64,000 nucleotides of DNA from Escherichia phage UoN_LG358_1. The notes below the pieces were generated by a model, which was not told the DNA's origin, ran no database searches, and saw only the letters and a list, made by a program, of their open reading frames with translations. The stretch is from sequence record OK570374. One strand, written 5' to 3'. Shown one piece after another: positions 20,171 to 37,330 of this stretch; position 1 is the stretch's first letter, and every line of letters begins with the position of its first letter. The position numbers and the translations under genes were made by a program.

Positions 20171-20204
20171 CCAGAAACAACAAAGGAGCCCGTAGGCTCC
20201 TTTT
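20171..20204 (-). terminator. terminator hairpin downstream of gene 32 (GGAGCC-CGUA-GGCUCC)
   Basis: 6-bp GC stem flanked by U/A-rich tracts on both strands. Confidence 0.5.
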
Positions 20205-21128: not shown

Positions 21129-21782
21129 TTAATATTTACAGTTTTTTACAGTTTTTATGAACAGTTGTTTTGCTTCTAATGCATCAACATCAAGAATTTT
21201 CTTGTATGCGTTGAGCTTAGTTGAATAATTTGACCAAACTAAATTATCTGTCGCCTGGTCATGATTATTTATAATATCCAAAAATGAATCAAGAATTATA
21301 AAAGTTTCGAAAGAAATAATACTACTTTGAAGTAGTTTAAACACATATGATGTGTTGATTTTGTTATTATATACAAATATTTCGTTTAGCGTTTTAACTT
21401 CAACTTTTTTGCTAAAGTAATAAATGTTTCTGACATCTTCTTCAAACGTGCTTTTAATCATTTTCAATTTGCCGATATATTCTCTATAGAATACCAAAGC
21501 ATCGGCGTCACTGATATCTCCAATCCAAGCATCTTGGTTAGCAACCAGATTGCTCACGAAGATTATTGCAAGCTCTTTAAGCTTATATTTTTCTGACAGT
21601 TTTTCAAAGAAATATTTATCGCGGCGCTTCTGATACGCCTTATCAGAAACCCGCATACGCCAGTTGTATTTTATTACATCATATCTGCCAGCGAAATGAT
21701 TTTTTAACATCAAATACAGCAAATAGACTGATTTTCCATTGATGTATCTATCACCATCAGGCGGCATGCGGATTTTAATCAT
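21129..21782 (-). CDS. 59: helicase loader gp59
   Basis: 217 aa ORF directly upstream of gene 32 as in T4. Confidence 0.8.
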   Translation of the reverse strand: MIKIRMPPDGDRYINGKSVYLLYLMLKNHFAGRYDVIKYNWRMRVSDKAYQKRRDKYFFEKLSEKYKLKELAIIFVSNLVANQDAWIGDISDADALVFYREYIGKLKMIKSTFEEDVRNIYYFSKKVEVKTLNEIFVYNNKINTSYVFKLLQSSIISFETFIILDSFLDIINNHDQATDNLVWSNYSTKLNAYKKILDVDALEAKQLFIKTVKNCKY

Positions 21783-22358: not shown

Positions 22359-23277
22359 TAATATGATTAGTTAATTTAGAAAGACCCGACTTCACAAAGT
22401 AAGAATAAATCTTACCGCGAGGAGGTGTTTTGTATAATTCATAATATTCTATAATCGGTTTAGCAATTTCTTCTGGAATATAACTAAAATCGATAAGAAC
22501 TCTATTTTCAAGATAACGATTATATTCGGCTTCTGTTAAAAGCGATTTCATTCCTTCTGGACCAGCATCTAAGCACTGCTCGAGAAGCTTAGTTGAAAAT
22601 GAAGGAGTTCGTTCACCATCAATTTTAGTGTACCAATAATCAGAACGCACTTTAACAGACGCGACGTTATCTTTGCGATCGCCTTTTAATACTTTAGTTA
22701 AACATTCAAGTTCAGCGTCCCCGGTTTTGCATACAACGAATTTCTTCTGCATCGGTGACCATTGTTTAACATTAGGATATCTGTGAAGCTGTTTAAAGTC
22801 GCCATCAGAAGAAACAATCATAATTTTGTGTCCCTTCAAAGAAAGATGAGGAACAAGAATACCGATATGGTCATCCGCTTCATATTTGTCAATATTCATA
22901 ATAGTGTAAGGCATATATTTTTGAAATTCATCGATAATTGTGCGAATTCCAGTAAAATATCCTTCCCAATCCCATAATGACTCTTCCCGGCCTTGTTTAC
23001 GGTTCTTTTTATAATAATACGCAATATCGCGTCGCCAATAACCAGACTTAGCGTTATCAGTACAAATTACAACTTTTTCATAACCTTGTTTGCGAAATTG
23101 TAAAACATTCTTTTTAAGAGTGCTTAGAACCAGATGCCGCATCATTGCGGGTTGAATTTTCTCTTTATCAGAGAATGTATTCAGCGCTGCAGCCAAAGCA
23201 ATTTGGGATAAATCCACTAACACAACACCTTCTTTCGTTTGGTCTTCTTCGCCAAACAGACAATCTAGATTTGACAT
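22348..23277 (-). CDS. rnh: RNase H (5'-3' flap exonuclease)
   Basis: 309 aa; FEN-family acidic clusters; divergent from gene 34 as in T4. Confidence 0.85.
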   Translation of the reverse strand: MSNLDCLFGEEDQTKEGVVLVDLSQIALAAALNTFSDKEKIQPAMMRHLVLSTLKKNVLQFRKQGYEKVVICTDNAKSGYWRRDIAYYYKKNRKQGREESLWDWEGYFTGIRTIIDEFQKYMPYTIMNIDKYEADDHIGILVPHLSLKGHKIMIVSSDGDFKQLHRYPNVKQWSPMQKKFVVCKTGDAELECLTKVLKGDRKDNVASVKVRSDYWYTKIDGERTPSFSTKLLEQCLDAGPEGMKSLLTEAEYNRYLENRVLIDFSYIPEEIAKPIIEYYELYKTPPRGKIYSYFVKSGLSKLTNHINEF

Positions 23278-23310
23278 TGAATAATCTCATTCAGTAGTTA
23301 ACAGAACTAT

Positions 23311-23318
23311 TATAAATA
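23311..23318 (+). promoter_or_regulatory. T4 late promoter TATAAATA for gene 34
   Basis: exact TATAAATA 29 nt upstream of gene 34 ATG. Confidence 0.65.
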
Positions 23319-23346
23319 CATTCTATAATAGCAAACAGGAGCAATC

Positions 23347-26300
23347 ATGGCCGAATTAAAACGTAAATTCAGAGCGCAAGAAGGTCTGGACGCTGCGGGT
23401 GAGAAAGTCATCAATGTTGCCAAGGCAGATCGGACGGTCATGTCTGACGGTGTTAACGTTGAATATCTCATCCAAGAAAACACATTACAACAATATGACA
23501 GCACTCGTGGTTATCCTGCGCAGTTTGCAGTCATTTATGATAACCGCATTTGGGTATCAAATCGTGAAATTCCTGAACCAGCTGGTGATTTCACCGAGCT
23601 TTACTGGAATTCCGTTCGTACTGATGCAAAATGGAAAACAGTATCGTCTGGAACCACAAATTTGAAATCAGGTGATTTTATTTCGGCTGACACTGCCGGA
23701 AGAACGGATATGAAATTTATTCTTCCAAGTAATCCGCAAGATGGTGATACAATTTTTATTAAAGATATCGGCGGTCAGCCAGGTTACGCTTCTCTTACCG
23801 TAGATGCTTCAGTTCAATCAATACTTTGGCTTGGAAAACAAGTTAGAACTGTACAGATGACGCATCCATATTCACAAATGGTTTTTGTTTTTAGCAATCG
23901 TTTGTGGCAGCTTTACATAAGTGATAATGAAAGAGTAGCAATTACTATTACTCCCGCATCTATTCATGAAGCACAAGCTAATGAATTCTTAGTTCGTCGC
24001 TATACTTCTGGCGCTCCGGTACGTGTTAAATTACCTAAGTATGCCAACAATGGTGACATGATTAATTTCACTGATTTAGATGCTATGAATCCGCAATTTC
24101 ATCTTTATGTTGATACTTATGATGAGAATACAAGCATTGGTTCAGTTGGAACTCACCAGTTAATTTCACGCACTTCAGGTGATGGATTTATAATATTCGA
24201 TGATTCTGAAAACTTGTGGCGCGTATGGGATGGTGATCTTCGTACTCGTCTTCGTATTATTCGTGAAGACACTATTGTTAGGCCTAATGACCATGTTATG
24301 GTATTTGGTGTAAATAACACTGAAGTAAAAACAGTGACTGTCACTTTACCACCAACTCCTGCAATTGGTGATACTGTAAAAATTTCTCTGAACTATATGA
24401 GAAAAGGTCAAACTGTTAATATAACTGCATCTGGCACAGATACAATTGCATCAAATGTTGCTTTACTTCAATTTCCTAAGCGTTCTGAATATCCGCCAGG
24501 AACAACTTGGGTACAAAACAAGACAATTTCATTTAATGGCGATACGTCTTATGTTCCAGTATTAGAACTATCTTACATTGAAGATAGTTCTTTAAAATAT
24601 TGGGTTATTGCTGAAAATAATCCTACAGTTGAACGAGTCGATTCAACAAGCGATTCAACCCGTAATCGTCTTGGTGTAATTGCTTTAGCTACTCAAGCTC
24701 AGGCAAACGTAGATTATGAAAATAATCCAGAAAAAGAAAGAGCTATAACTCCAGAAACTTTGGCTAATCGTATTTCTACTAAAATTCGCCGAGGTATTGC
24801 TCGTTTGGCTACTCAAGCTGAGCTTGAAGTTAAAACTGGTGGAACTCTACTTGATGACGTTATCGTTACTCCGAAAGTTTTGAATGACCGTATTGCTTTA
24901 GAAGACAGACAAGGACTTGCTGAATTAGCAACTCAGTCGGAAACTAATGATGGTGTAGACGATTCAAGAATTGTCACTCCTAAGAAACTTAATAATCGTA
25001 AAGCTTCTGAAATTTTAACTGGTATTATCGCTTTAGTAAAAACTGGTATAAGCACTTTAGCTGGTATAAATCGTGATACGAAAGGCACAAACGTATATGA
25101 CTATACTGATAATGAAAAAGCTGTAACTCCTGCTTCTTTGTTTGAAAATAAAGCTACATATACTTCGCAAGGCGGTTCTTATTTAGCTACAGAAACTGAA
25201 GTTATTCAAGGTACTCCTCATGACCCTAAAGTACCTACAGTTGTAACTCCGGTTGAATTACAAAAGAAAACTGCTACTGAAACTCGTATTGGTTTTACTG
25301 AAACTGCTACTCAAGTTGAAGTTGACGCAGGTACAGATGATTTCAGATATGTTACTCCTAAAAAATTAAATGGACGTAATGCTACTGAAACTTTAACTGG
25401 TATTTCACGAATTGCTACAGACTCTGAATTTTCAGCTGGCACATTAGATAATGTTATTTCAACTCCGTTGAAAATTAAAAATTACTTTTCTTCTGTTGCT
25501 CGTCATTCTGTTATTCCTGAATCTGGACTAGTTGAAACAGGGAACTTCTGGGACCATTATAACCTCGATATTCAAAAAGCATCTGAAACCCAACGAGGCA
25601 CACTCGCGTTGGCAACTCAGGTGTTGACTGATGCTGGTGTTGATGATACTACAGCTGTTACTCCTAAAAAGCTTCAAGCTAAAAAGACATCTGAAACTTC
25701 TGAGGGTATTATTCAAATAGCAACTCAGGCTGAGACTGTAGCTGGTATCGTTGGTAATAAAGCTGTTCCGCCAAAGCATTTGAAGTATGCTATACAGGTA
25801 CAAGCGGATTGGGAAGCAACACCTTTACGTAGAGGCCCAATTAAATTAACGGAAGGCGCATTAAGTTTTGTCGGTGATAAAGTATTTGGTTCGGGTGTTC
25901 AATTTAATGCTTTAACCGGTCTCTATGAAAACGATGATGCTAAATTAGCGTTAGGAAATTATTTCAAATCAGGTTATGCTGTATCTCCGTTTGAAATGAA
26001 CAAGACACTTCAAAACTTTTTGCCGATAAATGCAATTGCTGTTAATTCACACAAGTTAGATAATCTTGATTCAACCCAGTTCATTCGAAGAGATATCGAT
26101 CAGACAGTTGAAGGTTCTTTAACGTTAACCAAACAAACCAACACCAGTGCACCTCTAGTATCCTCTAGTACTGCGAAGTTTGTTAGTATGTTGGTTACCA
26201 CAGAAGCTACTATCGGTGACTCTACAAGTCACTCTGTGATTAATTTGGATGCGAAAACCAATAAATGGGTTATTGATGGCCAAGCTGATTCTTTATACTT

Positions 26301-27168
26301 GGATTTCACAGCAGGCGCTACTGATGTCCTTAAGCTGAAACGTGATGGTGATGTTAACGTAGCTCAAACACTTTATGCTGGAAATAAAGTAGATGCTTCT
26401 AAAGGCTTTAGCGTTGAAGGTGGTACAATGGTTATTAACCCTACCGCCACTAATATTCAAATTGGTTCTCAATCTAAAGCTACCAATATCCAAACAACGG
26501 ATGCTGGTAATTTACAAGTAACTGACCCGTCTGGCTCGTCTGTAGTTCTGACTACGAAAAACGCAATTACTATCGTCGGTAATAATTTCGTTAATAAAGC
26601 CGGAGACTCCATGTTTGGCCGATTGGATGTTTCTGCTGCTGTGAGCGCGGTTATTACTCAGGCTAAAGCTACTGGTCCTCTTACTAATGAAACGGTAGGT
26701 AGTTGGTCTTCTGAAATAATTGACCCGTTAATTTATAACACTTTGCCTGGATTTATGGTTCCGATTTATTCAGATGAAGACGGCGGGAAAGTTATAGTTG
26801 GATACGTTGATTATGACCCGGCAGATGCTTCTAAACGTGGTATAAGAGCTCCAGGTATACTGTCTCAGATTGGAACGAGTAAAAAGGAATTTACATATCA
26901 AATATGGAACCCTCGTCCAGCTACGGCTTATCCAGATGCTAAATCTTCTCTGTGGATTAGAACTTATGACCCAGTTAAAGGCGCATTTAACGAATGGGGA
27001 AGAGTTTATACTACGGAAGCACCAGTTACATCTGCTGAAATAGGAGCTGTTTCTACTGCTGGTTCTGCGTTTAATAACTTAACAATCAGAGATTGGTTAC
27101 AGATTGGTAATGTTCGTATTACTCCTAATCCTGCAACGCAATCTGTTGATTTTACTTGGGTGCCTTAA
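23347..27168 (+). CDS. 34: long tail fibre proximal subunit gp34
   Basis: 1273 aa; internal repeats (LATQAE...VTPKKL); SD AGGAG upstream; synteny. Confidence 0.95.
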   Translation: MAELKRKFRAQEGLDAAGEKVINVAKADRTVMSDGVNVEYLIQENTLQQYDSTRGYPAQFAVIYDNRIWVSNREIPEPAGDFTELYWNSVRTDAKWKTVSSGTTNLKSGDFISADTAGRTDMKFILPSNPQDGDTIFIKDIGGQPGYASLTVDASVQSILWLGKQVRTVQMTHPYSQMVFVFSNRLWQLYISDNERVAITITPASIHEAQANEFLVRRYTSGAPVRVKLPKYANNGDMINFTDLDAMNPQFHLYVDTYDENTSIGSVGTHQLISRTSGDGFIIFDDSENLWRVWDGDLRTRLRIIREDTIVRPNDHVMVFGVNNTEVKTVTVTLPPTPAIGDTVKISLNYMRKGQTVNITASGTDTIASNVALLQFPKRSEYPPGTTWVQNKTISFNGDTSYVPVLELSYIEDSSLKYWVIAENNPTVERVDSTSDSTRNRLGVIALATQAQANVDYENNPEKERAITPETLANRISTKIRRGIARLATQAELEVKTGGTLLDDVIVTPKVLNDRIALEDRQGLAELATQSETNDGVDDSRIVTPKKLNNRKASEILTGIIALVKTGISTLAGINRDTKGTNVYDYTDNEKAVTPASLFENKATYTSQGGSYLATETEVIQGTPHDPKVPTVVTPVELQKKTATETRIGFTETATQVEVDAGTDDFRYVTPKKLNGRNATETLTGISRIATDSEFSAGTLDNVISTPLKIKNYFSSVARHSVIPESGLVETGNFWDHYNLDIQKASETQRGTLALATQVLTDAGVDDTTAVTPKKLQAKKTSETSEGIIQIATQAETVAGIVGNKAVPPKHLKYAIQVQADWEATPLRRGPIKLTEGALSFVGDKVFGSGVQFNALTGLYENDDAKLALGNYFKSGYAVSPFEMNKTLQNFLPINAIAVNSHKLDNLDSTQFIRRDIDQTVEGSLTLTKQTNTSAPLVSSSTAKFVSMLVTTEATIGDSTSHSVINLDAKTNKWVIDGQADSLYLDFTAGATDVLKLKRDGDVNVAQTLYAGNKVDASKGFSVEGGTMVINPTATNIQIGSQSKATNIQTTDAGNLQVTDPSGSSVVLTTKNAITIVGNNFVNKAGDSMFGRLDVSAAVSAVITQAKATGPLTNETVGSWSSEIIDPLIYNTLPGFMVPIYSDEDGGKVIVGYVDYDPADASKRGIRAPGILSQIGTSKKEFTYQIWNPRPATAYPDAKSSLWIRTYDPVKGAFNEWGRVYTTEAPVTSAEIGAVSTAGSAFNNLTIRDWLQIGNVRITPNPATQSVDFTWVP

Positions 27169-28355
27169 TGGAAAAAATGATGGCGAGTTTTGGTAATGGA
27201 TATACCAAAACTCAAGTTATTTCTGAAAATAATTCCATCAAATACAAAATTTCATTTGCTGCGGGGTCGGTATTTTCGACCCCATCTTCTGCATATTTCA
27301 CCTTTCAGGATACTCCTATAGGTGACCAGCAAGATGGTGCTGGTATAAATGTTAGAATTTTTAACCCAGCATTGAATACTGTATCTACAAAGAAAACATT
27401 CTTATTAACGGCTAATGATGCTGATCCAGGAAATACCGCGTTTATTGATTATTTGGCATCGTTTACACAAGATAATACAAATTTGTTAATATTCACTACA
27501 TCAGGTGATATTAAAACTAGTACTTTAATAGAGAATAAATTTAAGTCAATTTATTCAACTATGTGGCCTAATAAATGGATAACTTCACGATATAGCTGTA
27601 CTTATTGCGGATTGTTTTCTATTAAAAATAACAAAATGATTGCTGAAAACGTAACTTATTCTGATGGGGTTCTTCGTGATGAAGATATAAGGCCTGCGTT
27701 AGAATTTGTTTACGATAAAGCAAATGATATAGGAGCTACCGGATTTTCTTATAGAGCGTTGGAAGATTTTAATGAATATACTAGTTCTTCTGCTACAATA
27801 AAAAGATATCCAATAGATTCAGTGTCAGGTGTAGACATTAGTACTATCGGAATAACACCAGGAGATATTCTTTTTTGGTCATTTGAATTTTTACACGGAG
27901 ACAATATGCCTCCAGAAGTACCCGGAACAAATGACAATAAAATAAGAATAGAAATAAGATGGTTGAATTCAGCTGGAAATTGGATTAAATCTGTTAACGT
28001 AGATTCTAATCATGCAAATGCTGGAAAATGGATAAAGCATGAGCAAACCGTTGAAGTTCCAGCTGACGCAGCTCGAATAGTTGTTCTTGCTTCTAAAACT
28101 ACTCCTAGCGATACTGTCGGAACAGGCGGGGTCCGCAACATGATATTAACTGAGACTTCGAGAGCAGTTGAACCAATGACTTCTCCGGCGGCAATATCGG
28201 TCAACGGAATTCGTTTGAATTCTATAGTATCCGGCACTTACCCAACATTGCTTATTTTACCAGCAAATGAATTTGATTCATCGGGTAAACCATTACCTGG
28301 CGAAGATATTTCTGGTATAATTTATAGCTCCGATTGGAGAGAGTTTGAAAAATAA
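27168..28355 (+). CDS. 35: long tail fibre hinge connector gp35
   Basis: ORF starting at ATG overlapping gene 34 stop (TAATG); track start is an upstream TTG. Confidence 0.8.
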   Translation: MEKMMASFGNGYTKTQVISENNSIKYKISFAAGSVFSTPSSAYFTFQDTPIGDQQDGAGINVRIFNPALNTVSTKKTFLLTANDADPGNTAFIDYLASFTQDNTNLLIFTTSGDIKTSTLIENKFKSIYSTMWPNKWITSRYSCTYCGLFSIKNNKMIAENVTYSDGVLRDEDIRPALEFVYDKANDIGATGFSYRALEDFNEYTSSSATIKRYPIDSVSGVDISTIGITPGDILFWSFEFLHGDNMPPEVPGTNDNKIRIEIRWLNSAGNWIKSVNVDSNHANAGKWIKHEQTVEVPADAARIVVLASKTTPSDTVGTGGVRNMILTETSRAVEPMTSPAAISVNGIRLNSIVSGTYPTLLILPANEFDSSGKPLPGEDISGIIYSSDWREFEK

Positions 28356-28357
28356 TT

Positions 28358-28380
28358 AAGGGCCGCAAGGCCCTTTTTTC
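28358..28380 (+). terminator. intrinsic terminator after gene 35 (AAGGGCC-GCAA-GGCCCUU + U6)
   Basis: GC-rich hairpin followed by TTTTTT on + strand. Confidence 0.6.
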
Positions 28381-28395
28381 TTTTATAAAATAGCA

Positions 28396-28403
28396 AATAA
28401 ATA
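28396..28403 (+). promoter_or_regulatory. candidate late promoter for gene 36 (AATAAATA, 7/8 match)
   Basis: near-consensus late motif 25 nt upstream of gene 36 ATG. Confidence 0.35.
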
Positions 28404-28427
28404 TGAATATACTCTAGAGGACTTCAT

Positions 28428-29093
28428 ATGGCCGATTTAAAATCAAATAGTACAGTAGGCGGAGCTCCTATATGGCATAAAGGAAATTTTCCTTTATCTC
28501 CAGTAGGTGACACTCTGCTTTATAAGACTTTTAAAGTCTACACAGAATTCGATAAACCTCAGGCAGTAGATAACGATTTTGTTTCTAAAGCTGCTGGAGG
28601 AGAATATTTAAAAAACGTTAATTTTAAAGAAGGTTTATCATTTAGTGATAAAGCTGGTGCTCCGATTTTTATTGGAGTTCCTAAAAATACCACGGCGGCA
28701 GCTACTTATACAGCATCGATAAAATTAACTGGGTCATTCGCTTTAGAAACTCCCGATAATAAGCCATTTATCATATTCAACCCAATAGAAACATTCGGTC
28801 CTGATATATACCGGTTGACTGTCATGGGTGATATGATTGCTCGTCAAATTTATGACGAATCAGGTAGAGTTTTTTCTCCAGGAAATACTCCATCTAAAGC
28901 GCAGGTCGGTTTAGGATTAGTTGATAACGCAAAACAAGTTCAACTTGAGCAATCAGCCGTACAAACAATGACAGGTGTTTTGGCTGCACCGAACTTTATA
29001 AGTACTAATCCGGCGACAGCTGATAACCACGTAGCTCGTTTTGACCAGATTGTAATAAAAGACTCAATTCAAGATTTTGGATATTATAGCTAA
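28428..29093 (+). CDS. 36: long tail fibre distal connector gp36
   Basis: 221 aa ORF; synteny. Confidence 0.85.
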   Translation: MADLKSNSTVGGAPIWHKGNFPLSPVGDTLLYKTFKVYTEFDKPQAVDNDFVSKAAGGEYLKNVNFKEGLSFSDKAGAPIFIGVPKNTTAAATYTASIKLTGSFALETPDNKPFIIFNPIETFGPDIYRLTVMGDMIARQIYDESGRVFSPGNTPSKAQVGLGLVDNAKQVQLEQSAVQTMTGVLAAPNFISTNPATADNHVARFDQIVIKDSIQDFGYYS

Positions 29094-29101
29094 GAGGACA
29101 T

Positions 29102-31321
29102 ATGGCTACTATAAAGCAAATTCAATTTAAAAGAACAAAAGTAGCAGGCTCTCGTCCTACTGCAGCTCAACTCGCTGAAGGCGAACTTGCTATTAACTTA
29201 AAAGACCGCACTATTTTTACAAAAGATGATTTGAACCAAATTATCGATTTAGGTTTTGCTAAAGGCGGCGAAGTATCAGGAGATATCACGCAGGTTGGTA
29301 ATTATACCCAAACCGGAAATTATAATCTAACTGGTGATGCTAATGTATCTGGTAAAATTACCACCAACGCATTAGATGTCAGTACTATTTCAGACCTAAG
29401 ACAAACTAACTTTAGACCTGTATTAAGCACAACAGCGGGTTCTAATTTTATTATATCAAACTCCGGCGGTTTAATCAAACCAATTACTTTGACAGTAGAA
29501 GGAACAGCAACAAGCTCAAACACTATTCTTCGTCATACTGTTGATACTACTGTGGCTGCTAGCGGATTTATTGATTCAATTAATGTTTCTCTTAATCCCA
29601 CTGACGGGGCTCTGGTTACAGCTCTTAATGGTACGGTGAATATCGGTAGTTCCCTTAAAACTCCTAAACTTTCTGTTTCCGGCGCCGAAACTATTTTAGG
29701 AGATTATAGCATTTCAATCGGTGATAATGATACCGGATTTAGATGGTCTTCTGATGGAATATTCAATACAGTAACTAATGGAACTTCGATTTACACTCAT
29801 TCTAATGGGATTACTTATTCTAACCGTCCAACACATTTCCGCTATACATCAGATAATGATGCTATGACGCCAACCGCCGTGTTTGATGGCGGTTATTTAG
29901 CTTTGGTAGATACTTCCACTGATGGCAATGCTTATGGCGACGCAATGAGCTATCTCGGTTATAAAGATGCTGCTGGTTATAGTTTTTATTTCCGTGGCGG
30001 TGGAACATTTAATGTAGCTTCTAAAGGCGGATTTAATGTAGATACAGCTGCTGCTTTTTCCAAAACGGTTGATGTATCTGATATTCTAACATGCAGCTCT
30101 ATTATTAAAGCTAAAGGCCCAGGTCAAGTTGACGTTACTAGTGCTGGTAATATTGCACTTGGCGGAACTATTCAATGGGTGCCTTCGTATATGAGCGGAA
30201 GCCCAAGTAAAGCACGAGATACTATAGCTATGGCGGCGTGGGGCGATGGGGCGCAACGAGTAAACGTACTTGAGACATCTGATTCATCTGGCTGGTGGTA
30301 TTATATTCAGCGAGCGTCTCCTAGTATTTCTCCTACCGGTGTAGAAGGTCGTATTAACGGGACGTGGCAAGCTTCAGATTTAATTTCTGATAATACTCTT
30401 AAAGTGGCAGGAGCTTTCACCTGCACTAGAAGAAACTCAGCGTCATGGGGTGATAACGCTGGATGGTATGCAGGAGCAACTCCTGTTGTAGTTAATCAAG
30501 GAAACATCCAAGAAATGGACCCGGGCGTAGGAGGTTTTTATCCTGGATTTGCCCAATATAACGTGAATGGAACCGGATGGAAACAAGCGTTTATGCTAGG
30601 TTTATTAGGTCAAGGTGTACAAAGATGGCGGCGAGGAGTATTAGCTCTTAGAGGTGATGGTCCCGTTGATGCTGGACAACAAATAGCACGTTGGTATTTT
30701 AGTCAAGAAGACGGAAGTTTAGAATCAGAAGGTCCACTGAAAGCTCCTAGCGTTCAGGCCGGTCAAATAACATCTTTTGGTGTGAACGTTACAAACGCGT
30801 TAGGTAGTGCGTCTATAGCCATTGGCGATAATGATAGCGGGTTGCGCTGGGTCAGTGACGGTATTATACAACTTATGGCGAATGGAGGACCTGTTGCAAC
30901 ATGGGATTCGGGTTCATTTTATACGGCAGAGGGAAAAGGGCTTTCATCTAACGGAGCAATGTGGTGCCGCGATAACTTAGACGTCAATGATGTTTATATT
31001 CGTTCTGACATTAGAGCTAAATCAAATATCAAACTGATTGAAAATGCTCAAGAAAAATCTAAGAAATTAGGCGGTTACACTTATCTGCTGAAAAACACTG
31101 AATCTGGTGAAATAAAACCTTCTGCTGGATTGATAGCTCAAGAAGTTCAAGATGTTTTACCTGAGTTGGTCACTAAAGACAAAGACACTGGGTATTTGCG
31201 TCTGAACTATAACGGTATTATTGGTTTAAATACTGCTACAATCAACGAACATACAGATGAAATTAATTCACTTAAATCTGAAATCGCTGAACTTAAAGCA
31301 CTTATTAAATCATTAATGTAA
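29102..31321 (+). CDS. 37: long tail fibre distal subunit gp37 with C-terminal intramolecular chaperone-like domain
   Basis: 739 aa; N-terminus MATIKQIQFKRTKVAGSRPTAAQLAEGELAINL; C-terminus contains DVYIRSDIRAKSNI and coiled-coil tail typical of auto-processing IMC (S74-like) domains. Confidence 0.85.
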   Translation: MATIKQIQFKRTKVAGSRPTAAQLAEGELAINLKDRTIFTKDDLNQIIDLGFAKGGEVSGDITQVGNYTQTGNYNLTGDANVSGKITTNALDVSTISDLRQTNFRPVLSTTAGSNFIISNSGGLIKPITLTVEGTATSSNTILRHTVDTTVAASGFIDSINVSLNPTDGALVTALNGTVNIGSSLKTPKLSVSGAETILGDYSISIGDNDTGFRWSSDGIFNTVTNGTSIYTHSNGITYSNRPTHFRYTSDNDAMTPTAVFDGGYLALVDTSTDGNAYGDAMSYLGYKDAAGYSFYFRGGGTFNVASKGGFNVDTAAAFSKTVDVSDILTCSSIIKAKGPGQVDVTSAGNIALGGTIQWVPSYMSGSPSKARDTIAMAAWGDGAQRVNVLETSDSSGWWYYIQRASPSISPTGVEGRINGTWQASDLISDNTLKVAGAFTCTRRNSASWGDNAGWYAGATPVVVNQGNIQEMDPGVGGFYPGFAQYNVNGTGWKQAFMLGLLGQGVQRWRRGVLALRGDGPVDAGQQIARWYFSQEDGSLESEGPLKAPSVQAGQITSFGVNVTNALGSASIAIGDNDSGLRWVSDGIIQLMANGGPVATWDSGSFYTAEGKGLSSNGAMWCRDNLDVNDVYIRSDIRAKSNIKLIENAQEKSKKLGGYTYLLKNTESGEIKPSAGLIAQEVQDVLPELVTKDKDTGYLRLNYNGIIGLNTATINEHTDEINSLKSEIAELKALIKSLM

Positions 31322-31325
31322 TAAA

Positions 31326-31339
31326 GGGCCTTCGGGCCC
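31326..31339 (+). promoter_or_regulatory. stable stem-loop (GGGCC-UUCG-GGCCC) in 37-38 intergenic leader
   Basis: perfect 5-bp GC stem with UUCG tetraloop, no U-tract, immediately before SD GGAGG of gene 38. Confidence 0.4.
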
Positions 31340-31350
31340 TGGAGGTTATT

Positions 31351-32130
31351 ATGGCAGTTGTAGGAATTCCAGGAAATATAGGGTCATCCGCCAAGGCAGA
31401 AACAGGACAAGCAAGCATGTCAGCTGCTGCGGTACAATTAAGACTACCTGCTACCGATGTATGGATGTCGCAATTTGCTGGTCTCTCTAAAGAAGAAATT
31501 TGGGAATGGACTGGTCCAAATCACAGTTTTAATAAAGATTGGTTAATAGGCGAACTTCGTAATAGAGGCGGTACTCCTGTGGTAATTAATATAAGAGCTG
31601 ACCAGGTTTCGCATACAGCAGGAGTTCCCTTGTTTGAATTTCCTGGAGACCTTCCAAACGCGTATGTTACACTCAACATTTATGCTACTATATACGGTAG
31701 AGGCGGTAATGGAGGAGGTCGCGGTAATGGAGATAAAGGCGGCGATTGTATTCATAACTGGATAGGGAATCGGTTAAGAATTAATAACCAAGGATGGATA
31801 TGCGGCGGTGGCGGCGGCGGCGGCGGGTCATATTGGGACCCAGGTTGGGGAAATCCGCAATACGGAGCCGGTGGTGGCGGCAGACCATTTGGTGTAGCTC
31901 CTTGGACTAATTTTAATACCCCAGCAACCAATGGTACACTCGAAGCGCCAGGCCATGGTTCAAGAGGAGGCAACTTTGGCGGTGGCGACGGTGGTCAGAC
32001 TGGCGCAAATGGCGGAGGTGCTTGGGGCCCGTCTGGAGAATTATATGGCGGTGGCGCATCTGGACACGCAGTAGTAGGAACCTCTCCTCAATGGATAAAC
32101 ACTGGTAATATTGCTGGTCCTTGGTTATAA
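31351..32130 (+). CDS. 38: receptor-binding adhesin gp38 (T2-type, glycine-rich motifs)
   Basis: 259 aa; several poly-Gly motifs (GGGGGGGGS, GGGG, GGGDGG) separated by variable segments. Confidence 0.8.
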   Translation: MAVVGIPGNIGSSAKAETGQASMSAAAVQLRLPATDVWMSQFAGLSKEEIWEWTGPNHSFNKDWLIGELRNRGGTPVVINIRADQVSHTAGVPLFEFPGDLPNAYVTLNIYATIYGRGGNGGGRGNGDKGGDCIHNWIGNRLRINNQGWICGGGGGGGGSYWDPGWGNPQYGAGGGGRPFGVAPWTNFNTPATNGTLEAPGHGSRGGNFGGGDGGQTGANGGGAWGPSGELYGGGASGHAVVGTSPQWINTGNIAGPWL

Positions 32131-32133
32131 ATA
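32126..32133 (+). promoter_or_regulatory. T4 late promoter TATAAATA for holin gene t
   Basis: exact TATAAATA overlapping gene 38 stop codon, 17 nt upstream of t ATG. Confidence 0.5.
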
Positions 32134-32149
32134 TCTCTAAGGAGATAAT

Positions 32150-32806
32150 ATGGCTTCAAAAATTTCGTTACCAATAACGGATATAATTTTTGGAGTATGG
32201 GACAGAGTTTTTAAAGATAATGCATCCGGGAGGGTTTTAGTCTCCCGGGTTGTTGTTGTAATTATTTTCTTTGTACTTGGATTAGTTTGGTCAAAAAGCG
32301 ATGCAATACTAACCACTTACAGAGATTCGTCTTACGATACGTACGCGAAAATTATACAACAAGAACGCGAATCACGCTTTGAAACAACTGCTCTGGAACA
32401 GCTTCAAATAGTTCACATATCCAGCGGAGCAGATTTCACTGCTGTGTATTCGTTTAGACCCAAAAATTTAAATTATTTTGTTGATTTAATAGCGTATGAG
32501 GGTAGATTACCTTCAACCGTTTCGGAAAAAAGTCTTGATGGTTTCCCGGTTGATAAAACTACTAATGAATATTCTACACATTTAGGAGGAAGAGTTTTTA
32601 AATCATCACAAGAATTTGCTTTTCTACCGTCAAAGAAAAAAACAACTGAATTAAAATACATGTTCAGTTGTCCTTACTTCAATTTAGATAATATATATGC
32701 CGGGACTGTTTCTATGTACTGGTACGATGGAGCTCCAAGTGTAAGCCCGGAACGACTTGAATCGATATGCGGTCAAGCCGCTCGTACATTAGGAAGGTCA
32801 CGTTAG
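32150..32806 (+). CDS. t: holin
   Basis: 218 aa; one N-terminal TM segment; ...LEQLQIVHISSGADFTAVYSFRPKNLNYFVDLIAYEG...CPYFNLDNIYAG matches recalled T4 holin T. Confidence 0.9.
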   Translation: MASKISLPITDIIFGVWDRVFKDNASGRVLVSRVVVVIIFFVLGLVWSKSDAILTTYRDSSYDTYAKIIQQERESRFETTALEQLQIVHISSGADFTAVYSFRPKNLNYFVDLIAYEGRLPSTVSEKSLDGFPVDKTTNEYSTHLGGRVFKSSQEFAFLPSKKKTTELKYMFSCPYFNLDNIYAGTVSMYWYDGAPSVSPERLESICGQAARTLGRSR

Positions 32807-33075
32807 TTGTTTGTGTGCATCGTCAGATGACGATAGATATCTTCAAACCCTTCATTAAATTCTTCAACGAGCATTCCTTTCTCTTCCGCAGTTAAATCAG
32901 AAATTATTTTTCTAAAGCTACTCTGATTTAACTGCTTCCAATTTTTATCATTACTCATTGTTTCATTAATAAAAGCAATAAAGTTATCTCGTTTATCAAC
33001 AATATCATCGCGACCAAATTTAATTAACAAAGACGCAATAGTAACAACTTCACGAGCAACTTCAAACTTAGTCAT
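32803..33075 (-). CDS. asiA: anti-sigma70 factor AsiA
   Basis: 90 aa; ...TIASLLIKFGRDDIVDKRDNFIAFINE...LNQSSFRKIISDLT...EEFNEGFE matches recalled T4 AsiA. Confidence 0.9.
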   Translation of the reverse strand: MTKFEVAREVVTIASLLIKFGRDDIVDKRDNFIAFINETMSNDKNWKQLNQSSFRKIISDLTAEEKGMLVEEFNEGFEDIYRHLTMHTNN

Positions 33076-33125
33076 CTTATATCCTTTAGTATTTAATTTT
33101 TAAATCAGTAAAACAGTATAGAAGT

Positions 33126-33155
33126 ATAGTATCAAAATTTTATGATGTTGTAAAC
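33126..33155 (-). promoter_or_regulatory. T4-type early promoter (GTTTAC-N18-TACTAT), asiA
   Basis: - strand GTTTAC 33155..33150, TACTAT 33131..33126. Confidence 0.6.
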
Positions 33156-33166
33156 GGTTAAGTGAA

Positions 33167-33427
33167 CTAATTTAAAACTTCCCAACGAACCATCAGATGC
33201 TCAGGTTGAGTTACGTACTCATTTCCAGAATTGTTCACTCGAATGGCGTAGCGACCATCAATCATCGAAGCTGATATATACCATTCGGCTCCTACCGGAC
33301 GAATCCTACGTCCCATCCAGTGACAGATTTCCATGGCCTCATGAAAAGAGTAATATTCTTTGTCCATTGCCAAATTAATCATCATAGTTTCAATATAACG
33401 CTGAATTTCTACAGTTTGGTTGCTCAT
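33167..33427 (-). CDS. hypothetical protein (86 aa), in the position of T4 arn
   Basis: ORF adjacent to asiA; identity not established. Confidence 0.4.
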   Translation of the reverse strand: MSNQTVEIQRYIETMMINLAMDKEYYSFHEAMEICHWMGRRIRPVGAEWYISASMIDGRYAIRVNNSGNEYVTQPEHLMVRWEVLN

Positions 33428-37144: not shown

Positions 37145-37330
37145 TCATTTAATCATGCCAGTATAAAAGAACAGACGTTCAACCGCCAAAGCAGCTATTC
37201 CGAAACACACAGCTCCAAGAACTCTTGGCGGAGGGGCTAACCCCTCCCAAATAAACATCCCAGAAACTATAAATAACGGTATCATTATAATAAACATGGT
37301 CACCCATATAGTTTTAATTGCGTCATTCAT
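37145..37330 (-). CDS. small membrane protein (61 aa)
   Basis: two hydrophobic segments. Confidence 0.4.
   Translation of the reverse strand: MNDAIKTIWVTMFIIMIPLFIVSGMFIWEGLAPPPRVLGAVCFGIAALAVERLFFYTGMIK

Follow-up and report, generated by a model that had tools for sequence, protein, structure and literature searches.

T4-type late transcription signals in the tail-fibre and holin gene block of a Gelderlandvirus phage

The tail-fibre and holin genes of this phage appear to follow the late transcription layout of the T4 family, with late promoters ahead of genes 34, 36 and t and an intrinsic terminator between genes 35 and 36. We infer the transcripts, their starts and ends and the efficiency of termination from the anatomy of the signals and from their conservation in related phages, and put the probability of this reading at roughly 80%. 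The window, meaning the whole 64-kb stretch of DNA that was analysed, belongs to a T-even phage resembling S16 and STP4-a, a member of the genus Gelderlandvirus in the subfamily Tevenvirinae. Its region 27000–33000 shows 89.6% identity to Salmonella phage STP4-a, and coverage of the same region by other S16-like phages of the genus is 83–96%.

The late gene block and its proposed transcription

Six genes in the order 34, 35, 36, 37, 38 and t form a 9.5-kb block at 23347–32806 (Table 1). All long plus-strand ORFs of the window lie within this block, unless nested in a minus-strand gene, and all sizeable window genes outside it are on the minus strand. Among these, rnh, dsbA and genes 33, 59 and 32 are located left of the block, and asiA right of it. 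Gene identities were assigned from the ORF list, Pfam matches (genes 34, 37, 38 and t) and annotated orthologues; genes 35 and 36 were without a match in the Pfam search, and their identity is based on synteny and the annotation of relatives. The gene 35 ATG overlaps the gene 34 stop codon (TAATG), hence the two genes are probably translationally coupled. Genes 36 and 37 are 8 nt apart with a late box absent from the gap, and the stop codon of gene t overlaps that of the convergent asiA.

Table 1. Genes, late promoter boxes and RNA structures of the tail-fibre and holin block, in window coordinates.
Feature	Position	Strand	Details
P34, exact T4-type late box TATAAATA	23311..23318	+	Predicted start ~23324, leader ~23 nt with SD CAGGAG
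Gene 34, long tail fibre proximal subunit, 1273 aa	23347..27168	+	Pfam Gp34_2nd, E 3.8e-18; STP4-a orthologue annotated
Gene 35, proximal hinge connector	27168..28355	+	Start as in STP4-a and SEA1 annotation; stop 28353–28355
Structured region, first 25 codons of gene 35	27178..27240	+	Core hairpin 27185–27213
Putative intrinsic terminator after gene 35	28358..28384	+	Stem AAGGGCC/GGCCCTT, GNRA loop GCAA, then U-rich tract
TATAAAATA, probable degenerate relic	28384..28392	+	Position of exact TATAAATA in most lineages, directly past U tract
P36, AATAAATA, likely box, A(-13) variant	28396..28403	+	Predicted start ~28409, leader ~19 nt with SD AGAGGA
Gene 36, distal hinge connector, 221 aa	28428..29093	+	Orthologues 36–99% identity
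Gene 37, distal tail fibre subunit, 739 aa	29102..31321	+	C-terminal intramolecular chaperone domain (Pfam)
Hairpin AGGGCC-TTCG-GGCCCT, genes 37/38	31325..31340	+	No U tract; SD GGAGG directly after
Gene 38, T2/S16-type tail-fibre adhesin, 259 aa	31351..32130	+	Pfam GP38, E 1.7e-68; Gp38_N
Pt, exact TATAAATA	32126..32133	+	Predicted start ~32139, leader ~11 nt beginning at SD AGGAG
Gene t, T holin, 218 aa	32150..32806	+	Pfam Phage_holin_T
Conserved hairpin inside t, codons 25–34	32224..32250	+	Just before transmembrane codons, then U-rich stretch

During late infection, host RNA polymerase with the late sigma factor gp55, gp33 and the sliding clamp gp45 would start at P34 and produce transcripts covering genes 34 and 35. 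A fraction of these polymerases, possibly most, would be released at the hairpin and U-rich tract after gene 35, giving 3′ ends at about 28378–28385, and the hairpin retained at the 3′ end should shield the 34–35 mRNA from 3′ exonucleases. Transcription would restart at P36 and extend through genes 36, 37 and 38, with Pt, placed within the gene 38 stop codon, adding further transcripts of t. With a promoter ahead of each of genes 34, 36 and t, the prediction is of three or more overlapping late units, in place of the two transcription units proposed in an earlier note on this DNA.

The late coactivator gp33 (Pfam Trans_coact, E 1.2e-26) is encoded in the 64-kb window, as is DsbA, and genes 55 and 45 lie outside it. 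The location of the gp55 and gp45 genes was counted against the layout, together with the interrupted U tract behind the 35/36 hairpin, the departure of P36 from the exact consensus and the anchoring of the hairpin alignment on loops. A literature search for maps of T4 late 5′ and 3′ ends, or for a transcript map of the present phage, returned nothing usable.

Hairpins between and within the genes

The hairpin after gene 35 (28358–28375) starts 2 nt past the stop codon and has a 7-bp stem with five G:C pairs. Its energy alone is −12.5 kcal/mol, and its 61-nt context folds with −15.1 kcal/mol (z −2.5). The T run that follows consists of T6 (28374–28379), a C and T4 (28381–28384), the first two Ts being paired in the stem, and the element is readable either as a 7-bp stem with U4CU4 or as a 5-bp G:C stem with U6CU4. 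The earlier note had called a terminator here; the hairpin, the U run and the conserved, covarying stems bear this out, whereas its description as a 7-bp stem plus U6 counts two Ts twice. All elements of intrinsic-terminator anatomy are present, with a stable GC-rich stem-loop and an adjoining U-rich tract on the same strand, past the stop codon. Under strict terminator criteria (a perfect stem of ≥6 bp, at least five of them G:C, and a T-rich tail behind it) the window contained three sites, compared with 0.12 ± 0.37 per shuffle in 60 dinucleotide shuffles, and the site at 28358 is the sole one inside the late block. A bidirectional terminator at this junction was also considered and rejected: the minus-strand version passes a simple scan, but its tail is provided by the Lys and stop codons at the end of gene 35, and T4 lacks this tail.

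The 35/36 junction was compared across T4, STP4-a, 20 IMG/VR loci (gp36 41–99% identical) and five further Gelderlandviruses. A GC-rich tetraloop hairpin follows gene 35 in 23 T4-like loci including T4 (gp36 36–99% identical), with a T run behind it in nearly every lineage. The stem sequences vary between lineages (GGGCC/GGCCC, GGAACC/GGTTCC, GGGACC/GGTCCC, GGACC/GGTCC, GGGAGAC/GTCTCCC and GGGAGCC/GGTTCCC) and pairing is kept through compensatory changes. Among 12 distinct hairpins, pairing holds in 88% of cells, and both sides have changed in six of nine pairs; the covariation score is 0.49, against 0.26 ± 0.04 after shuffling, a value that 0 of 500 shuffles reached. Shifting the partners by one to three columns lowers all covariation measures. 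Anchoring the alignment on loops favours pairing, yet the pattern is still plain in the raw sequences. Anatomy and conservation support the assignment of 28358–28384 as a putative intrinsic terminator. The split described in the earlier note presumes efficient termination, but read-through may be substantial since the U tract is interrupted after the full stem.

The interrupting C is likewise an argument for a different role of this hairpin, as mainly an RNA-stability or processing element and a weak terminator, with a continuous transcript from gene 34 to t to which P36 and Pt would merely add. A very similar stem (GGGCC/GGCCC) with a UUCG loop occurs between genes 37 and 38 without any U tract, which indicates that stable tetraloop hairpins in this cluster also serve purposes other than termination. 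Further structured elements are located within gene 35 and within t, and no terminator was found 3′ of gene t. However, unlike the 37/38 hairpin, the 35/36 hairpin has a T run behind it in nearly every lineage. A fresh late promoter always follows it and would be mostly superfluous if polymerases generally read through, and the RB69 and RB49 versions reach a TransTerm score of 100. We regard such a stability element as possible, although unlikely, and retain termination after gene 35 as the preferred reading.

The 37/38 and 35/36 hairpins share the same stem core, and many T4-like loci have a tetraloop hairpin whose stem covaries at the 37/38 junction. In T4, a hairpin between the Shine–Dalgarno sequence (SD) and the AUG of gene 38 shortens a 22-nt spacing to 5 nt. 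The window resembles this split-SD arrangement in having a stable GC-rich UUCG hairpin at 37/38, but its gene 38 SD (GGAGG) is 3′ of the hairpin, 5 nt from the ATG. With the SD downstream of the hairpin and at normal spacing, the T4 mechanism is not applicable and the role of the hairpin in the window must differ.

The structured region at the start of gene 35 has a folding energy of −21.2 kcal/mol, compared with −8.2 ± 2.5 kcal/mol for synonymous recodings (z −5.2), and occurs likewise in STP4-a and Merlin, where the Merlin GenBank record annotates it as a "terminator". T4 gene 35 has an equivalent 5′ hairpin with another stem sequence (z −2.0). This structure may lower translation of gp35 relative to the coupled gp34. 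The T4 fibre has a stoichiometry of 3:1, which lowered gp35 translation would fit.

The hairpin inside t (ATCCGGGAGG-GTTTTAG-TCTCCCGGGT, 10 bp) is made of the rarest Gly, Arg and Ser codons (GGG, CGG/AGG and TCC). Compared with synonymous recodings it has a z of −3.6 in the window; values of −2 to −4.6 were obtained for 13 of 16 lineages, and in 12 of the 16 it is the most stable 45-nt stretch of the gene. The sense strand is more stable than the antisense strand in most lineages, and in holins of 42–68% identity the hairpin is rebuilt from other sequences. Here too the Merlin GenBank record carries a "terminator" label. The predicted, abundant 36–38 tail-fibre transcripts have no terminator of their own, and one speculative role for the t hairpin would be that of a sense-RNA intragenic attenuator or 3′-end former, which would end or stabilise these transcripts and limit the share of polymerases or ribosomes that finish t, and with it holin dose and lysis timing. 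We consider this role doubtful at present. It is nonetheless the most interesting lead among the conserved RNA hairpins, and since holin dosage sets lysis timing, the hairpins at the gene 35 start, at 37/38 and in t could matter more than the other signals if confirmed.

Two further observations concern the region around the start of t. In one locus (IMG/VR contig 2974770551, L034) the hairpin inside t is missing (z 0.1), and a terminator-like hairpin (GAGAGCT-CTAGT-AGCTCTC followed by TTATTTTTAT; 1141–1200 of that locus) separates the TATAAATA box from the SD of t and could be a positional substitute for the one inside the gene. In T4 (L001:10708–10790) and several other lineages, the SD, AUG and codons 2–8 of t pair with the conserved D-I-L-F-G-V codons, with −25 kcal/mol and z −2.75 in T4 and z −4.7 in locus L033, and the N-terminal codons covary with the third base of the Gly codon. 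The corresponding structure in the window (32139–32215) was not significant (z −0.7).

Rfam detected no families at gathering score in the window and none in 23000–33300 at E ≤ 1. Literature searches on RNA structure in gene t, and more broadly on the conserved hairpins in gene t, gene 35 and at 37/38, found nothing usable.

Late promoter boxes before genes 34, 36 and t

Of the signals described in the earlier note, the exact late promoter 29 nt upstream of gene 34, counted from the last base of the box to the ATG, and the second exact TATAAATA over the gene 38 stop were both located as claimed. The leader of t is predicted to be short, as the note expected, at ~11 nt. The Pt box overlaps the TAA of gene 38 (32128–32130), and the ATG of t lies 16 nt past the box. 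Measured from their starts, the boxes are 36 nt (gene 34), 32 nt (gene 36) and 24 nt (t) upstream of the ATG. The T4 late box, a −10-like element of 8 bp, is register-specific and occupies −13 to −6, and by this rule late starts are predicted near 23324, 28409 and 32139. A T4-type late promoter has an A/T-rich segment just past the box and does not need a −35 element; such segments follow each of the boxes, with CATTCTATAATA at P34, TGAATATA at P36 and TCTCTAAG at Pt. All three are either the box itself or a documented single deviation from it, on the coding strand, upstream of a late-gene orthologue and kept in relatives.

The context of the P34 box is the same in most of 12 other loci compared, T4 among them. 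A Pt-type box is present ~24–50 nt before the t start in nearly all lineages, whatever gene, or type of gene 38, lies upstream. Before gene 36, a box of the form [T/A/C]ATAAATA starts 31–33 nt from the ATG in most of 23 loci, and the RB69-like group has CATAAATA at 41–42 nt. Every lineage compared has a late box behind the 35/36 hairpin, in most cases an exact TATAAATA fused to the U tract. No [A/C/G/T]ATAAATA was detected on the plus strand between 28404 and 32125, i.e. there is no further box before gene 37 or inside gene 36, and genes 36, 37 and 38 therefore probably form one unit.

The earlier note had listed two near-consensus motifs before gene 36. Both are present, and AATAAATA is the credible one, whereas TATAAAATA is a 9-mer and is not conserved. 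In the window and the eight other Gelderlandviruses compared, AATAAATA is invariant and keeps the ancestral register, 32 nt ahead of the gene 36 start codon. Nine of 50 listed T4 late promoters have an A at −13, which makes it the most frequent of the accepted deviations, and relatives of T4 often have T or A at this position (Nolan 2006); AATAAATA is on these grounds likely to be the gene 36 promoter box of the genus.

The case for TATAAAATA as the working gene 36 promoter instead is that it sits right past the U tract, where T4, Moon-like phages and others have an exact TATAAATA, and that one inserted A is its sole difference from the consensus. However, it aligns to the 8-bp box only with this insertion, and the site read as an 8-mer has two to three mismatches to a box that is register-specific. 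Among the nine Gelderlandviruses, TATAAAATA is restricted to the window and CGG4-1; the other seven, i.e. seven of the eight relatives compared, have GTAAAATA in its place. It is AATAAATA that keeps the conserved distance of 31–33 nt to the gene 36 ATG. We rejected TATAAAATA as the main candidate on account of its length and its lack of conservation in the genus, consider a promoter role for it improbable, and view it as probably a non-conserved relic.

Both strands of the window contain five copies of TATAAATA, compared with 7.7 expected from shuffles, so it is the placement of P34, P36 and Pt, and not the bare count, that goes beyond chance. That the motifs and the hairpin are chance matches in AT-rich spacers without a regulatory role could be argued from this low total, but is ruled out for practical purposes, since three of the four plus-strand copies of [A/T]ATAAATA in the 64 kb are directly before genes 34, 36 and t, strict terminator sites far exceed the shuffled number, and conservation with covariation extends across lineages down to 36% protein identity.

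The fourth plus-strand box, a TATAAATA at 37268–37275, lies within the minus-strand early region, in the spacer that separates a gene 52-like ORF from the next ORF, with no late gene downstream, just a 16-codon ORF. On the minus strand, the gene 59 homologue contains a TATAAATA at 21266–21273. This copy is upstream of gene 32 (301 aa, Pfam gp32), and its position suggests a late promoter serving gene 32. Just 3′ of gene 32, a bidirectional-looking hairpin (AAAGGAGCC-CGTA-GGCTCCTTT, 20182–20203) matches the conserved terminator described at that site by Nolan 2006.

Comparison with T4 and its relatives

The layout described here is the T4 arrangement and is already known, both from publication (Nolan 2006) and from annotation in the phages Melville, Merlin and SEA1. 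Nolan 2006 (Virol J 3:30) predicted a Rho-independent terminator between the rightward genes 35 and 36 in T4, RB69, RB49, RB43, 44RR and Aeh1 (6/6 genomes), and the supplement of that study lists the RB69 and RB49 sites with their TransTerm scores. In GenBank, Salmonella phage Melville has a terminator at 147708–147730, between the gp35 and gp36 genes, Citrobacter phage Merlin has a 35/36 terminator at 158535–158548, and in Salmonella phage SEA1 the gene 38 stop, immediately ahead of t, is covered by a "T4virus/Tequatrovirus late gene promoter". The 35/36 terminator and late boxes of the window are ordinary in this respect and belong to the standard late-gene signals already described for the T4 family. 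The AATAAATA box before gene 36 is annotated in none of the Melville, Merlin and SEA1 records, and this A(-13) box of the genus is the sole local detail without annotation elsewhere.

The main value of the analysis is one of correct annotation, in that this Gelderlandvirus keeps the T4 late layout for its host-range (tail fibre) and lysis genes. For the engineering of S16-like tail fibres, this means that swaps should retain the 35/36 terminator-promoter cassette and the promoter in the gene 38 stop.

Published boundaries of the T4 late units are not fully consistent with each other. A review of the T4 tail describes co-transcription of genes 34 and 35 and a separate late promoter for gene 36; the same review assigns 34–35 to a middle-mode promoter and 37–38 to a further promoter. 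The middle-mode assignment does not fit the exact late box before gene 34. T4 has a AATAAATA inside gene 36 (L001:6857–6864), 186 nt before gene 37, which is absent from the window and may be the other promoter for 37–38 named in the review. The GenBank and RefSeq records of T4 contain no promoter or terminator features.

Direct comparison with T4 shows an identical order of genes 34–38 and t, a TATAAATA ~35 nt upstream of gene 34, a GC-rich tetraloop hairpin and U run past the gene 35 stop (after two bases in the window and six in T4), a late box that precedes gene 36 by ~31 nt, and a TATAAATA over the gene 38 stop with a t leader of ~12 nt in T4. The two differ in the loop of the 35/36 hairpin, which is UUCG in T4 and GCAA in the window, and in the box behind it. 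In T4 an exact TATAAATA is fused to the U tract (T5CTT), whereas the window has AATAAATA with 11 further bases in between. Gene 38 is of the chaperone type in T4 and of the T2/S16 adhesin type in the window. Relative to the terminators predicted by Nolan 2006, the window thus shares the 35/36 junction, but differs in its lineage, Gelderlandvirus, and in the sequence of both stem and loop.
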